A stretch of 6,089 bases of DNA from Escherichia phage phiK. Made by a program: the position numbers and the translations under genes. This document shows, piece after piece, positions 758-6,089 of this stretch (positions are counted from its first letter, which is position 1; each line of letters starts with the position of its first letter). The notes beneath the pieces are model-generated. The model saw only the letters and a list, made by a program, of their open reading frames with translations, was not told the origin of the DNA and ran no database searches. Location of the stretch: the sequence record NC_001730.1. One strand, given 5' to 3'.

Positions 758-2242
758 ATGGCTACCGAAATCTTTTCTGATGTTGTTAAATCTGTTTGGT
801 CGCACGCTACGGCTAAGCACGCCCATCTTCGTATGGCTGTTCAGGTTGATAATCGTAGTCGCCTTCTTTCTGATTTGGTTTACCAGTTGGAAAAACGCCT
901 CTCCGAAGAGACTCATCTGGATGATGAGACTTATGCCCTTTATGAATCTCAGACTGGCCTTTTGGAAGACCATATGGCACTGGTTCGGAAGTGTGCAGCC
1001 CAACTTGATAATAGTAACACTATAGACCACCGCACCCCGTTGGACCCTGAATGTGTTTTTCTTTTTGAGATGATTTGTCCAGGTGTCCGCTATGGTAAGA
1101 CGCTTAATTCGCTTTGGAGTAAGTATGCTGCCCAGTGGCCTGAGAAATTGATTCGTCAGGAGCTCGACATGGTCAAGCCTTTATCCTTTAAGGATGAGGT
1201 TGCCAAGTACATGGAAAAAATGCAGGAAAAAACACGCAAAAACCGCATGACTCAGAAAGTTATCAATGAGATGCGTATTGCTCACCAGAAAGGCTGGTTC
1301 TTTGTGTTTGACACGTTGACCCTTGCCGATGACCGTTTGCAGGCATTCAATGAAAACCCCAATGCTCTTCGTGATTATTTTAGGACTGTTGGTCGAGCTG
1401 TTCTGCGCGCTGAAGGTCGTTCGGTTAAGGATTCCTACAACGACTGCTATCGCTATCTTTGTGTGCCGGAGTTTGGAGGTCAGCACGGTCGTCTTCATTG
1501 GCACGTTGTGCATATGGTGCGGACTCTTCCTTTGGGAAGTCATGACCCTAACTTCGGTCGCCCGGTACGTAATTATCGCCAGATTAACTCGTTCCGTGGC
1601 ATGTGGCCCTATGGCTTTACGCAACCGATAGCCGTTCGTTATCAACATGACGCTTATTCTCGCAAAGGTTGGTTATGGCCTGTTGACAAATCAGGAAAAG
1701 CAATGCAGAGTAAGCCGTATCAGGCGGTCGCATGGTATGTGACCAAGTATGTAGCTAAGCAATCTGACCAGCGTCAGAAGGCTATTACCGAGAGACAAAA
1801 GAAATGCAAGAATCCATTAATGGCAATCTGTCTGAAGAAAGAATTTCGGGTGCGCAGCAGCCGGAAGCTTGGAATGGAGCTCCCGTCAATGGCTCACCTG
1901 AGCAACAAAGTGCTTCTGGAGCTGAGTCGAATCAGCTTCGATTCCAGTCCTCTTTATCAGATAGTGAAAGAGAACGCCAAAAAGCAACTGACCTTGAACA
2001 TCGGCGCGCTGCCTTTGCACGTCATTTTGGATGTGCGCCCGGAAGTGAGAAGCATGTTGAAAGCTATTCGTCGTTTGATGAAAAAGACACCAGAGTTCAA
2101 CTGGCAGAGTTCTATCGCTTCAATGACGGTCACCTTAAAAAATGGGGATATTTCTGATGAAGCACGTCAATACATTATTGATGCAGGAATTACGCCTACT
2201 GATTTGCGAGCTAAAGCGACTCAAACTTTCGGCGGTAAGTGA
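758..2242 (+). CDS. A: Gene A protein, rolling-circle replication initiator (HUH endonuclease), 494 aa
   Basis: ATG 758, stop TGA 2240-2242. Translation aligns with phiX174 A protein from ...DNSNTIDHR... onward: WFFVFDTLTLADDRL, HUH motif GRLHWHVVHM, paired catalytic tyrosines in YVTKYVAK, C-terminal ...ASMT...GGK. N-terminal 80 residues are divergent, as is usual for this family. Confidence 0.95.
   Translation: MATEIFSDVVKSVWSHATAKHAHLRMAVQVDNRSRLLSDLVYQLEKRLSEETHLDDETYALYESQTGLLEDHMALVRKCAAQLDNSNTIDHRTPLDPECVFLFEMICPGVRYGKTLNSLWSKYAAQWPEKLIRQELDMVKPLSFKDEVAKYMEKMQEKTRKNRMTQKVINEMRIAHQKGWFFVFDTLTLADDRLQAFNENPNALRDYFRTVGRAVLRAEGRSVKDSYNDCYRYLCVPEFGGQHGRLHWHVVHMVRTLPLGSHDPNFGRPVRNYRQINSFRGMWPYGFTQPIAVRYQHDAYSRKGWLWPVDKSGKAMQSKPYQAVAWYVTKYVAKQSDQRQKAITERQKKCKNPLMAICLKKEFRVRSSRKLGMELPSMAHLSNKVLLELSRISFDSSPLYQIVKENAKKQLTLNIGALPLHVILDVRPEVRSMLKAIRRLMKKTPEFNWQSSIASMTVTLKNGDISDEARQYIIDAGITPTDLRAKATQTFGGK
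1001..1030 (+). other. Viral (+) strand origin of rolling-circle replication (A-protein recognition and nick site)
   Basis: CAACTTGATAATAGTAACACTATAGACCAC matches the phiX174 origin 30-mer as I recall it (CAACTTGATATTAATAACACTATAGACCAC) at 28/30, both differences in the AT-rich spacer. Lies inside gene A at the homologous codon position (LDNSNTIDH). Expected nick between G1007 and A1008. Confidence 0.85.
1211..2242 (+). CDS. A*: A* protein, in-frame internal restart within gene A (candidate)
   Basis: In-frame ATGs at 1211 and 1220 (MEKMQEKTRKNRM...) align with the phiX174 A* start (MKSRRGFAIQRLMNAMRQAHADGWF versus MQEKTRKNRMTQKVINEMRIAHQKGWF); GGATGAGG-like SD at about 1193-1199. Inferred by homology; which ATG is used is unknown. 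Confidence 0.35.
   Translation: MEKMQEKTRKNRMTQKVINEMRIAHQKGWFFVFDTLTLADDRLQAFNENPNALRDYFRTVGRAVLRAEGRSVKDSYNDCYRYLCVPEFGGQHGRLHWHVVHMVRTLPLGSHDPNFGRPVRNYRQINSFRGMWPYGFTQPIAVRYQHDAYSRKGWLWPVDKSGKAMQSKPYQAVAWYVTKYVAKQSDQRQKAITERQKKCKNPLMAICLKKEFRVRSSRKLGMELPSMAHLSNKVLLELSRISFDSSPLYQIVKENAKKQLTLNIGALPLHVILDVRPEVRSMLKAIRRLMKKTPEFNWQSSIASMTVTLKNGDISDEARQYIIDAGITPTDLRAKATQTFGGK
1804..2157 (+). CDS. B: Gene B protein, internal scaffolding protein, 117 aa, overprinted within gene A in a different frame
   Basis: ATG 1804, stop TGA 2155-2157. C-terminus ...RVQLAEFYRFNDGHLKKWGYF matches phiX174 B ...RIQPAEFYRFHDAEVNTFGYF; acidic, low-complexity N-terminal region typical of B. Confidence 0.9.
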   Translation: MQESINGNLSEERISGAQQPEAWNGAPVNGSPEQQSASGAESNQLRFQSSLSDSERERQKATDLEHRRAAFARHFGCAPGSEKHVESYSSFDEKDTRVQLAEFYRFNDGHLKKWGYF

Positions 2243-2955: not shown

Positions 2956-3030
2956 ATGAAAAAAGCACGTCGTTCTCCTAGTCGTCGTAAAGGTGCTCGC
3001 CTCTGGTATGTAGGCGGTTCTCAGTTTTAA
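2956..3030 (+). CDS. J: Gene J protein, small basic DNA-binding/packaging protein, 24 aa
   Basis: ATG 2956, stop TAA 3028-3030. MKKARRSPSRRKGARLWYVGGSQF shares the C-terminal KGARLWYVGG.QF with phiX174 J. The short 24-aa form is characteristic of the G4/alpha3 group. Absent from the ORF track only because of length. Confidence 0.9.
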   Translation: MKKARRSPSRRKGARLWYVGGSQF

Positions 3031-3032
3031 TT

Positions 3033-3062
3033 ATGGGCCTTCGGGCCCCTTAAGGATTATTA
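3033..3062 (+). promoter_or_regulatory. J-F intercistronic hairpin (GGGCC-TTCG-GGCCC) plus AAGGA ribosome-binding site for F
   Basis: GGGCC 3035-3039 pairs with GGCCC 3044-3048 across a TTCG tetraloop; AAGGA 3052-3056 sits 6 nt before the F ATG. phiX174 has a comparable GC hairpin in its J-F spacer (TJ terminator / mRNA-stabilising element). Confidence 0.5.
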
Positions 3063-4358
3063 ATGTCTAATGTACAAACTTCAGCTGAACGTGAAATTGT
3101 TGACCTCTCTCATCTTGCTTTTGACTGTGGCATGATTGGTCGCTTGAAAACTGTTTCATGGACTCCTGTTATCGCTGGCGATTCCTTTGAGCTTGATGCT
3201 GTTGGTGCTTTGCGTCTTTCTCCTCTGCGTCGTGGTTTAGCCATTGATTCTAAGGTTGACTTTTTCACTTTCTATATTCCGCATCGTCATGTTTATGGTG
3301 ATCAGTGGATTCAATTTATGCGTGATGGTGTTGATGCTTCGCCGCTTCCTTCCGTTACTACTACTAAGTATCCGGATGATGCTGGTTATGTTGGTACTAT
3401 TGTTCCTAAGAGCAACCGTATTCCTAAGTTTTTGCATCAGTCTTATCTGAATATTTATAATAACTATTTCCGTGCGCCGTGGATGCCTGAGCGTACTGAA
3501 GCTAATCCTTCAAACTTAGATCGTGATGATTCTCGTTATGGATTCCGTTGTTGCCATCTTAAAACTATTTGGTCTGCTCCTCTTCCTCCGGAAACTAAGC
3601 TCGCTGAGCAAATGGGCATTGAAAGCAATTCCATTGATATTATGGGTTTGCAGGCCGCTTATGCGCAGCTTCACACTGAGCAGGAGCGTACTTATTTTAT
3701 GCAGCGTTACCGTGATGTTATCTCCAGCTTTGGCGGTTCAACCTCCTATGATGCCGATAACCGACCGTTGCTTGTTATGCATACCGATTTTTGGGCTTCC
3801 GGTTACGACGTTGACGGTACCGACCAATCTTCCCTTGGACAGTTTTCGGGGCGAGTTCAACAGACGTTTAAACACTCAGTGCCGCGATTCTTCGTGCCTG
3901 AGCATGGTGTCATGATGACTTTGATGCTGGTTCGCTTCCCGCCTATCAGTCCTTTGGAGCATCATTATCTTGTTGGTCGTAATAATTTGACTTATACCGA
4001 CCTTGCTGGTGACCCGGCTTTGATTGGTAATTTGCCGCCGCGTGAGATTTCTTATCAGGACCTTTTCCGTGATGGTCGCCCGGGCATTAAGATTAAGGTT
4101 GCCGAGTCTATCTGGTATCGTACTCATCCGGATTATGTTAACTACAAGTATCAGTTACTTGAGGGTTTCCCGTTCCTTGATGATGCGCCCGGTACGACTA
4201 GTGGTGATGACCTTCAGAAGGCTATTCTCATTGACCATAATGACTATAATGCCTGTTTCCAGTCTCAGCAGTTGCTTCAGTGGAATAATCAGGCTCGTTA
4301 TAATGTTAATGTTTATCGCCATATTCCTACTGTTCGTGATTCTATTATGACCTCTTAA
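3063..4358 (+). CDS. F: Gene F protein, major capsid protein, 431 aa
   Basis: ATG 3063, stop TAA 4356-4358. Extensive identity to phiX174 F: MSN.QT.AER, TPVIAGDSFE.DAVGALRLSPLRRGLAIDS, YGFRCCHLK, IDIMGLQAAYA, SGYDVDGTDQ.SLGQFSGRVQQT, LPPREIS, QLLQWN, TRDSIMTS. Confidence 0.97.
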   Translation: MSNVQTSAEREIVDLSHLAFDCGMIGRLKTVSWTPVIAGDSFELDAVGALRLSPLRRGLAIDSKVDFFTFYIPHRHVYGDQWIQFMRDGVDASPLPSVTTTKYPDDAGYVGTIVPKSNRIPKFLHQSYLNIYNNYFRAPWMPERTEANPSNLDRDDSRYGFRCCHLKTIWSAPLPPETKLAEQMGIESNSIDIMGLQAAYAQLHTEQERTYFMQRYRDVISSFGGSTSYDADNRPLLVMHTDFWASGYDVDGTDQSSLGQFSGRVQQTFKHSVPRFFVPEHGVMMTLMLVRFPPISPLEHHYLVGRNNLTYTDLAGDPALIGNLPPREISYQDLFRDGRPGIKIKVAESIWYRTHPDYVNYKYQLLEGFPFLDDAPGTTSGDDLQKAILIDHNDYNACFQSQQLLQWNNQARYNVNVYRHIPTVRDSIMTS

Positions 4359-4361
4359 TTC

Positions 4362-4391
4362 ATGGGCCTTCGGGCCCATTAAGGATTTTTT
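4362..4391 (+). promoter_or_regulatory. F-G intercistronic hairpin (ATGGGCC-TTCG-GGCCCAT) plus AAGGA ribosome-binding site and T6 run
   Basis: 7-bp stem 4362-4368/4373-4379 with TTCG tetraloop; AAGGA 4381-4385; TTTTTT 4386-4391 directly before the G ATG. 27/30 identical to the J-F module at 3033-3062. Confidence 0.5.
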
Positions 4392-4955
4392 ATGTATCAA
4401 ATTTTTGTTACTAAGCATGATACCGCCATTCAGACCTCCCGTTTTTCTGTTACTGGCAGTATCACTCCTGTTGCGCCTACTGGTAATATCCCTGTTATCA
4501 ATACTGGTAATATTACTGCTGAGCATGCTGTTGTTAGTCTTTATGCTAATTTGACTGCTGGCACCTCTTCTGATGGTTCTTTTATTGTTGCTATGAAGGT
4601 TGACACTTCTCCTGCTGACCCCAATTGCGTTATCTCTGCTGGTGTTAACCTTAGTTTTGCTGGTACCTCATACCCGATTGTTGGCATTGTTCGTTTTGAG
4701 TCTGCTTCTGACCAGCCCACTTCTATTGCTGGTAGCCAGATTGAGCATTACCCAATTGAAATGTCTGTAGGTTCTGGTGGTGTTTGTTCTGCTCGCGATT
4801 GCGTTACTGTTGATATTCATCCTCGCGCTTTTGGCAATAATGTTTTTGTTGGCGTGATTTGTTCTAGTGCTAAATGGACCTCCGGTCGTGTGCTTGGTAC
4901 CATCGCTACGACTCAGGTTATTCGTGAGTATCAGGTCCTTCAGCCGCTTAAATAA
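4392..4955 (+). CDS. G: Gene G protein, major spike protein, 187 aa
   Basis: ATG 4392, stop TAA 4953-4955. Matches phiX174 G in conserved blocks: VRFES, KDCVT.D..PR..GNNV.VG and C-terminal L.QVI.E...LQPLK. Confidence 0.95.
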
Positions 4956-5090
4956 AAGGCCGCCGCACTCCTGGTTATGTGTCTGCCCAGTGTAGGGCGG
5001 ACCGAGCCATACGGAGATACCCGATAAACTAGGAACGTGGAAGGCGTTAGCCGCCTTCCCTCCTGCTAAGCCCAAAAAGGAGCTTACAAT
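4956..5090 (+). other. Structured GC-rich G-H intergenic region; candidate complementary (-) strand origin recognised by DnaG primase
   Basis: 135-nt non-coding spacer (I recall about 11 nt in phiX174) with two stable hairpins: 4981-5002 (GTCTGCCC/GGGCGGAC, 6-nt loop, one G-U pair) and 5039-5059 (GGAAGGCG/CGCCTTCC, 5-nt loop). Ends with the H SD AGGAG at 5078-5082. G4-type phages carry a primase-dependent origin in a hairpin-rich spacer between late genes. Assignment here is by analogy. Confidence 0.4.
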
Positions 5091-6089
5091 ATGCTTGGTA
5101 GTATCATTGGAGGCATTGGTTCATCGCTGCTCGGAGGAATTGCTTCCGGCGGTATCTCCAGCCTCCTTAATAAAATGTTCAGTAAAATGCCAGAACATGC
5201 CGCCTCTTCTGCTGGCCTTACTAATGGTCAAGGTACTATTGGTATGGATACTGATGCTGGTATTCAGTCTGCTATTCAGGGTTCTAATGTTCCTCCTGCT
5301 GGTCAATTGCCCGCTTCTAATACTTCTGGTGTTATGGCTGATGCTGGTAATATGATTCGTAATGCTGGTAGAGCTTTGCTTGATGGTACGATTCAGGCTG
5401 GCTCTGATAAGGTTAAAGAGGCTCTTATTGATAAGTTGGTTGGAGGTAATGATGCTAAAGACCGAGGAAAGGCAACCCGTGATTACTTGGCAGCGGCTTT
5501 CCCTGAGCTCAACCCGTGGGAGCGTGCTGGAGCTGGTGCTTCCACTGCCGGGTTAGAGTCTTCTGCTCAGAATCAACAAAAAGAGATGCTTAAAATGCAA
5601 CTGGATAACCAGAAGGATATTGCTAAGATGCAGATGAATAACAATTTGCAGATTGCTGGAATTCAGTCCGCTACATCTCGTCAAAATACGAAGGATTCTG
5701 TTTATGCCCAGAATGAAATGCTTCAGTATAATCAACGTGAGTCGCAGGCACGCGTTGCGTCTATCCTCGCCAACACTGACCTTACGACTAAGCAGGCCAC
5801 CCATGAAATTATGAGGATGGCTCTTACTCGTGCTCAGGAAACTGGTCAGCATTTGACTAACTCTCAGATTATGGCTTTGGAGAAAAAGGTTTATGCAGAA
5901 ATTGGAAAAATTCATCAAGATACTCAAAATTCTCGTTATGGTAGCTCTCAAGTTACTGCCGCAGCGAAAGACGTTACGAATATGATTACTGACGCCTCTT
6001 CAGGTCTTGCTGATTGGGCCTCCCAGCAGTGGGATTCGTTCTTTAAGGATGGCAAGTCTGATGGCATTCCTCTCAATACTAGAAAATAA
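5091..6089 (+). CDS. H: Gene H protein, minor spike / DNA pilot protein, 332 aa
   Basis: ATG 5091 (AGGAG 5078-5082), stop TAA 6087-6089. Matches phiX174 H: glycine-rich N-terminus, SAIQGSNVP, TRDYLAAAFPELN.WERAGA, KMQLDNQK, IAGIQSATSRQNTKD.VYAQNEML, ARVASI, QNSRYGSS, KDGK.DGI. Confidence 0.95.
   Translation: MLGSIIGGIGSSLLGGIASGGISSLLNKMFSKMPEHAASSAGLTNGQGTIGMDTDAGIQSAIQGSNVPPAGQLPASNTSGVMADAGNMIRNAGRALLDGTIQAGSDKVKEALIDKLVGGNDAKDRGKATRDYLAAAFPELNPWERAGAGASTAGLESSAQNQQKEMLKMQLDNQKDIAKMQMNNNLQIAGIQSATSRQNTKDSVYAQNEMLQYNQRESQARVASILANTDLTTKQATHEIMRMALTRAQETGQHLTNSQIMALEKKVYAEIGKIHQDTQNSRYGSSQVTAAAKDVTNMITDASSGLADWASQQWDSFFKDGKSDGIPLNTRK

Follow-up and report, generated by a model that had tools for sequence, protein, structure and literature searches.

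The hairpin between the coat protein gene F and the spike gene G (positions 4359 to 4391) of the 6,089-nt stretch of DNA analyzed here, hereafter the window, is an ordinary feature and an element of a long-known kind. It is probably a leaky terminator and mRNA 3′-end stabilizer of the T_J type known from phiX174, present as the second copy of a cassette whose other copy lies between genes J and F. Position and sequence alike identify the J-F element as the homologue of phiX174 T_J, for which weak Rho-independent termination has been documented. The intercistronic cassette of about 33 nt comprises a stop codon, 3 to 4 nt, a G+C hairpin capped by C(UUCG)G, the Shine-Dalgarno (SD) sequence UAAGGA, a 6-nt A/U spacer, and AUG. 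It would act in the mRNA as the alpha3-group counterpart of the T_J hairpin, on the one hand as a weak, read-through-prone intrinsic terminator and on the other hand as a shield of the upstream message against exonuclease attack at its 3′ end. The two copies, after J and after F, would step transcript levels down while most polymerases go on, and the ribosome-binding site of the next gene would come after the hairpin. Termination, mRNA stabilization, and their magnitudes are carried over from phiX174, for the F-G copy indirectly.

The window represents all or nearly all of the genome of an alpha3/St-1-type microvirus (Bullavirinae, Alphatrevirus), with full-length identities of 94.0% to St-1, 93.4% to Lilleven, and 90.5% to alpha3. 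It has the microvirus gene order A-C-D-J-F-G-H, with coordinates that match those of annotated relatives. Only the plus strand is coding, and the viral strand has the same sense as the mRNA. Open reading frames and the annotation of relatives place the genes as follows.

758 to 2242, plus strand: gene A
end at 2954, plus strand: gene D
2956 to 3030, plus strand: gene J
3063 to 4358, plus strand: gene F, coat protein (position as in the St-1 and alpha3 annotations)
4392 to 4955, plus strand: gene G, spike (in agreement with the G annotation in relatives)
5091 to 6089, plus strand: gene H

Divergence from St-1 is greatest in the long spacer between H and A (1 to 757), where identity drops to 83%, compared with 94 to 98% elsewhere. 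This spacer contains mechanical open reading frames, e.g., 1 to 432 (143 amino acids), and hypothetical proteins are annotated in the equivalent region of Lilleven. A near-consensus promoter-like sequence, TTGACA-16-TAGACT, is located at 4 to 31, right behind the H stop codon. Promoter-like matches near the F-G site (4213 to 4241) are at chance level, with 10 found versus 9.4 expected. The G-H spacer (4956 to 5090) can be aligned column for column with the F-G spacer of G4, where the primer RNA and the origin of complementary-strand synthesis are annotated; by this alignment, the origin module of the alpha3 group therefore sits between G and H, and the F-G slot of the group holds the second J-F-type cassette.

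The F-G spacer reads TTC-ATGGGCC-TTCG-GGCCCAT-TAAGGA-TTTTTT and is followed by the G start, ATG(G). It is composed of the elements listed here together with the flanking codons.

4356 to 4358, plus strand: F stop codon TAA, 3 nt upstream of the hairpin, at the end of the F reading frame
4362 to 4379, plus strand: hairpin of 7 Watson-Crick pairs, ATGGGCC/GGCCCAT, with a TTCG loop closed by C-G
4362 to 4368, plus strand: 5′ arm of the hairpin, ATGGGCC
4369 to 4372, plus strand: loop of the hairpin, TTCG
4373 to 4379, plus strand: 3′ arm of the hairpin, GGCCCAT
4364 to 4377, plus strand: conserved core, GGGCC-TTCG-GGCCC, with 5 G-C pairs and the C(UUCG)G tetraloop
4380 to 4385, plus strand: SD sequence TAAGGA of gene G (AAGGA is present in both spacers of 17/17 alpha3-group genomes)
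4386 to 4391, plus strand: T6 run, the whole spacer between the SD sequence and the ATG of gene G
4392 to 4394, plus strand: start codon of gene G

The J-F spacer (3031 to 3062) reads TTAT GGGCC TTCG GGCCC C TTAAGGA TTATTA and leads directly to the F start codon.

3028 to 3030, plus strand: J stop codon TAA
3035 to 3048, plus strand: hairpin core GGGCC-TTCG-GGCCC of 5 pairs, the positional homologue of the phiX174 T_J hairpin GGGGCTTCGGCCCC
3035 to 3039 and 3044 to 3048, plus strand: arms GGGCC and GGCCC, with the loop TTCG at 3040 to 3043
3051 to 3056, plus strand: SD sequence TAAGGA, followed by the spacer TTATTA (3057 to 3062) and the F ATG at 3063
3026 to 3066, plus strand: first copy of a 41-nt direct repeat (repeat family D5, 85% identity to its partner)
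4355 to 4395, plus strand: second copy of this repeat

The preliminary description of this DNA had listed a 7-bp stem followed by AAGGA and TTTTTT for the F-G copy and a 5-bp stem with an ATTATTA tail for the J-F copy, all of which is borne out by the sequence. It had also placed the T run 6 nt before the ATG of G; the run is in fact 6 nt long and abuts the ATG, and it is parted from the stem by the 6-nt TAAGGA. The gap between AAGGA and ATG amounts to 6 to 8 nt in both spacers of the alpha3-group genomes. Measured against a stem criterion of at least 5 G+C-rich pairs and a loop of 3 to 8 nt, the F-G hairpin has 7 pairs, 5 of them G-C, and the J-F hairpin 5, all G-C, with a loop of 4 nt in both cases; a T3034/C3049 mismatch follows beyond the J-F stem. 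The minimum free energy (MFE) of the 33-nt F-G spacer is −12.9 kcal/mol as RNA (z = −2.55, 7 pairs) and −7.8 kcal/mol as DNA, and the values for the J-F spacer are −10.4 kcal/mol (z = −0.89, i.e., dinucleotide shuffles fold almost as well as the native sequence) and −5.8 kcal/mol, respectively. The window contains exactly two occurrences of the 14-mer GGGCCTTCGGGCCC, with an expectation of 0.24 even if up to 3 mismatches are allowed. Positions 3639 to 3661 (repeat family D3, 23 nt, 78%, ATTATGGGTTTGCAGGCCGCTTA) were rejected as a third member and regarded as a chance match because they are part of the coding sequence of F and their arms (GGGTT/GGCCG) are unable to pair into the stem.

The conservation of the cassette was investigated in the J-F and F-G spacers of 17 alpha3-group genomes, i.e., the window, 13 GenBank records, and 3 IMG/VR contigs, and the spacers of phiX174 and G4 were extracted for comparison. 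Both spacers carry the hairpin in 17/17 alpha3-group genomes, always with a G+C stem of 4 to 6 bp capped by C(UUCG)G. In phiX174, the hairpin is present in J-F only, where it represents the terminator T_J; the J-F hairpin of G4 is a different one, and no homologue of the F-G hairpin was found in the F-G spacers of these two phages. All 35 copies, which represent 16 distinct cores, share without variation the hexamer CTTCGG, comprising the UUCG loop and the C-G pair that closes it. Base pairs were counted in a loop-anchored ungapped alignment of the 16 distinct cores, which replaced a MAFFT alignment of the whole spacers that had misplaced the variants with 6-bp stems. Pairing is complete in 16/16 distinct cores at the four positions nearest the loop. 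Compensatory changes occur at pair 8-15 (C-G in 10, G-C in 6) and at pair 7-16 (G-C in 13, C-G in 3), and these C-G/G-C swaps support the stem. The covariation score of 0.292 compares with 0.128 in shuffles, with 0/500 shuffles reaching 0.292, and it has its maximum at slide 0, the proposed register. Beyond the fifth pair, pairing is seen in just about half of the cores, and the selected unit would therefore be the 4- to 6-bp G+C stem with its cUUCGg cap. The J-F hairpins of the WA13 group are identical to the T_J hairpin of phiX174 at 14/14 positions; the window matches the latter (GGGGC-TTCG-GCCCC) at 12/14 positions, and both differences belong to one compensatory pair. A search with the Rfam covariance models returned no match at an E value of ≤1 anywhere in the window.

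The special stability of the C(UUCG)G tetraloop is a property of RNA. In both window copies, as in all 35 copies examined, the UUCG loop closed by C-G lies on the mRNA-sense strand, and the reverse strand would give a CGAA loop. This RNA-specific stability and the location of the loop on the mRNA-sense strand make RNA the most likely level of action of the element. A role of the hairpin as a DNA element of the single-stranded viral genome, be it in replication, gene A protein cleavage, or packaging, is highly improbable. The hairpins fold as DNA too, and other microvirus spacers carry DNA origins, the G-H spacer of the window being homologous to the complementary-strand origin of G4. But the invariant part is precisely cUUCGg, the placement is tied to stop codons and ribosome-binding sites, and the complementary-strand origin has already been located in the G-H spacer.

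The two copies within a genome tend to resemble each other, since the stem variant next to the loop (GGGCC or GGGGC) is alike in both copies in 16/17 genomes. This match could be a consequence of shared ancestry, recombination, or gene conversion, and gene conversion that keeps the two cassette copies alike is a secondary possibility. Its signal is confounded by phylogeny, and the two informative genomes disagree: NC28 is concordant, with GGGCC in both copies despite WA13-like F-G flanks, whereas the stem variants of MG945254 from dog feces are discordant. The 1992 record of alpha3 (X60322, 4363 to 4395) lacks one C in the 3′ arm of its F-G hairpin (GGGCCTTCGGGCC-TTT), which is present in the resequenced alpha3 genome DQ085810 (4364 to 4397) and in three IMG/VR relatives; the missing C is probably a sequencing error of the old record.

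With respect to termination, a U-tract was expected to start 0 to 2 nt after the stem and to contain at least 5 U in 8 nt. The 8 nt behind the 7-bp F-G stem, UAAGGAUU, contain 3 U, and those behind the J-F stem, CUUAAGGA, contain 2 U. A tail with 6 U in 8 (AUUUUUUA) is found only for F-G and only in a weak extended fold that is predicted for this spacer.

4353 to 4384, plus strand: predicted extended fold, in which UCUUA (4353 to 4357) would pair with UAAGG of the SD sequence (4380 to 4384) around the hairpin core (MFE prediction)

In a consensus terminator scan of the window, neither cassette copy was called. The same scan recovered only T_H among the four named terminators of phiX174, and the negative result therefore speaks against a strong canonical terminator but not against a function. 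A score of the d'Aubenton-Carafa type (modern energy parameters from ViennaRNA, threshold d > 0) was calibrated on five sequences only; among the calibrators, phiX174 T_H reached +39.8, lambda tR2 +38.2, the trp attenuator +42.8, and phiX174 T_J +0.2. On this scale, the hairpin cores of F-G and J-F score −5.6 and −6.6 and the extended folds −4.8 and −32.3, all below the threshold. By the d scores of their cores, both cassette copies belong to the weak T_J class and are effectively equal.

The most terminator-like of the gene boundary sites scored in the window is located before gene A. A hairpin with the arms GCCCTC (725 to 730) and GAGGGC (744 to 749) is directly followed by TTTTT (750 to 754), CGC, and the ATG of gene A (758). 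This site has the layout of phiX174 T_H, with an MFE of −14.2 kcal/mol, a z score of −3.2, and a d score of +17.4, and a promoter-like sequence, TTGGCA-18-TATATT, is found just upstream of it (695 to 724).

The preliminary description regarded the F-G copy, with its longer stem and its T6 run, as a materially stronger terminator than the J-F copy that would cause a bigger drop in transcript levels after F. This is conceivable, though on balance doubtful. The fuller terminator layout claimed for F-G holds insofar as the hairpin is more stable (−12.9 versus −10.4 kcal/mol as RNA) and the downstream 6 nt are all T, but it fails in that the T run is too far from the 7-bp stem, so that the actual tail is UAAGGAUU and the core scores hardly differ. 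In the predicted extended fold, U6 would begin one base beyond the stem; scored in this form, F-G comes out far ahead of J-F (−4.8 versus −32.3) but stays below the threshold. The outer helix of this fold consists of 4 to 5 A/U-rich pairs interrupted by a 4-nt bulge and contributes no more than about 1.6 kcal/mol; its base, the part in which a terminator has to be strong, is rich in A/U. T_J, T_F, and T_G of phiX174 block only 20 to 40% of transcription and T_H, the sole efficient one among the four named terminators, about 70% (10.1101/2020.03.05.979765). T_H shows that a hairpin with T6 and ATG can terminate efficiently, but the predicted folding energies of the phiX174 terminators are uncorrelated with their measured efficiencies (10.1101/2020.03.05.979765). 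In addition, 3 nt (F-G) or 4 nt (J-F) separate the stop codon from the hairpin, a distance at which termination is repressed by a ribosome positioned on the stop codon; the efficiency of lambda tR2 falls from about 90% to <10% with a stop codon 5 bp upstream because the terminating ribosome blocks folding of the hairpin (PMC4824070). The late-transcript gradient, which had been thought to fit a stronger F-G terminator, needs only successive partial terminators.

The features on which a stronger F-G terminator would be based are not conserved, each being one base away from the state of close relatives. Among the 17 alpha3-group genomes, the 7-bp F-G stem is found only in the window, St-1, and Lilleven, where a single T-to-A difference from the alpha3 state at 4378 (CATGGGCC...GGCCCTTT) adds two pairs. 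The T6 run is restricted to the window, with T at 4391 in place of the C of St-1. The spacer between SD sequence and ATG of G is TTTTTC in St-1 and Lilleven, TTTATCT in alpha3, and TTTGATT, TATTGATT, and similar in the WA13 group, and NC29, ID32, NC35, and the dog feces genome MG945254 have a T5 run in the J-F spacer instead. In the 8 nt after AAGG, F-G has more T than J-F in 11 of the 17 genomes, an equal number in 5, and fewer in 1. This T excess of F-G, which would favor the stronger terminator, is a tendency mainly of the St-1/alpha3 clade, with its A-rich J-F spacers, and no rule. By sequence comparison, the 7-bp stem and T6 appear to be recent single-base variants at the strain level and do not represent a conserved design for stronger termination after F. 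For this particular strain, stronger F-G termination is plausible, if only tentatively so; it depends on two single-base, nonconserved differences and a weak predicted helix. T6 is first of all the spacer between the SD sequence and the AUG of gene G; to serve as a U-tract, it would need the weak outer helix between the F end and the SD sequence to form.

The same predicted helix raises the question of translational coupling, in which the ribosome that finishes F would open the helix and free the SD sequence of G, thereby tying the synthesis of G to that of F; the GC hairpin would nucleate and insulate the fold that masks the SD sequence. The 5′ arm of this fold consists of the last Ser codon of F and the UA of the stop codon. 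The helix 4353-4357/4380-4384 is part of the MFE structure in contexts of 56, 71, and 131 nt, followed by A and U6, and the mean probability of being unpaired is 0.28 for the SD sequence in F-G and 0.38 for that in J-F. It is also present in the spacer MFE of F-G in 17/17 genomes, and the variation of the F stop codon between TAA and TGA retains the pair as A-U or G-U. A phiX174 particle contains 60 copies of each of the proteins J, F, and G (PMC3003669). Coupling is nevertheless unlikely. The complementarity of a U-rich gene end and UAA/UGA with UAAGG is nearly automatic because UUAA is self-complementary, and covariation cannot test the outer helix because one arm is coding and the other one is the SD sequence, both being fixed by other constraints. 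Moreover, the helix is weak, and its J-F counterpart occurs in the MFE of just 1/17 genomes. A broader version, in which the repeated cassette would be a translational-coupling module that ties together the 60-copy virion proteins J, F, and G, with U6 as a ribosome landing site and back-up U-tract, is distinctly unlikely.

A further alternative, which overlaps with the preferred reading of a leaky terminator and stabilizer, is a pure 3′-end stabilizer or processing barrier essentially without termination. The hairpin would then block 3′-to-5′ exonucleases after cleavage or termination further downstream, a role for which a GC stem capped by cUUCGg is well suited, and J-proximal and F messages would outlive the distal ones. 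The subthreshold terminator scores of the cassette are consistent with such a role. So are two observations on phiX174 T_J, i.e., the near-zero termination that was fitted to RNA-seq data in a modeling study (PMC11527146) and the faster mRNA decay, namely of the shorter transcripts, upon disruption of T_J (PMC3335065). However, the step-downs at T_J in quantitative PCR (qPCR) and RNA-seq are usually read as 20 to 40% termination (PMC3335065, 10.1101/2020.03.05.979765), with a transcript read-through of 68% at 37°C by qPCR (PMC3335065), and steady-state data do not separate stabilization from termination. Stabilization alone is somewhat unlikely. The substitution C987T, which adds a T next to the phiX174 T_J stem, recurs in chemostat evolution (PMC3606162), and tail composition can therefore matter. 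In a 2026 preprint on saturation mutagenesis of phiX174, 14.6% of terminator mutations are given as detrimental.

The current analysis exemplifies that the alpha3/St-1 group uses a T_J-type hairpin twice, after J and after F, and has its complementary-strand origin module between G and H. The cassette and the origin module are a tidy example of the reshuffling of intergenic modules in microviruses. Mildly new, in a descriptive sense, are the perhaps previously undescribed duplication of the T_J-type cassette into F-G across the alpha3 group, the compensatory stem variants, and the strain-level nature of the 7-bp stem and T6. If the two copies really differ in read-through, the natural single-base variants (4378 A/T, 4391 T/C) would provide a minimal in vivo system in which the effects of stem length and of the distance between stem and U-tract on a weak terminator beside a stop codon could be measured. 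For annotation, the lesson is that a T run beyond the SD sequence should not count as the U-tract of a terminator.

In comparison with known systems, the F-G element shares with canonical Rho-independent terminators such as lambda tR2 and the trp attenuator a G+C-rich hairpin past the gene and a T run nearby, but its U-tract lies away from the strong stem, its score is far lower, and the hairpin begins 3 nt after the stop codon, in the zone of ribosome repression. C(UUCG)G hairpins from intercistronic regions and terminators of phages and bacteria, reportedly described by Tuerk et al. in 1988 (PNAS) and d'Aubenton-Carafa et al. in 1990 (J Mol Biol), have the same short G+C stem and C-G-closed UUCG loop as the window; they constitute a structural motif class and no functional family, and membership is uninformative on termination efficiency. 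In phiX174 T_H, as in the F-G spacer, T6 is both the spacer between SD sequence and ATG and a possible U-tract. The contiguous 8-bp stem of T_H directly abuts T6, and its 3′ arm contains the SD sequence, whereas in the window T6 is 6 nt away from the strong stem, adjoins only the weak, bulge-interrupted helix (−4.8 versus +39.8 for T_H), and the SD sequence would be part of a 3′ arm only under the predicted extended fold. The true T_H-like site of the window is the one at 725 to 754 before gene A. The likeness to phiX174 T_J is that of a homologue for the J-F copy, which likewise lies 4 to 5 nt past the stop codon of J, immediately ahead of the ribosome-binding site of F. The F-G copy is a paralogue at another junction, where phiX174 has a nonhomologous 110-nt spacer with T_F and the minus-strand origin, and the SD sequence is UAAGGA in the window and GAGGA in phiX174. 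T_J and the window cassette have in common the CTTCGG loop with its closing pair on a G+C stem of 5 to 6 bp, the absence of an adjacent U-tract, and d scores in the same range (+0.2 versus −5.6 and −6.6).
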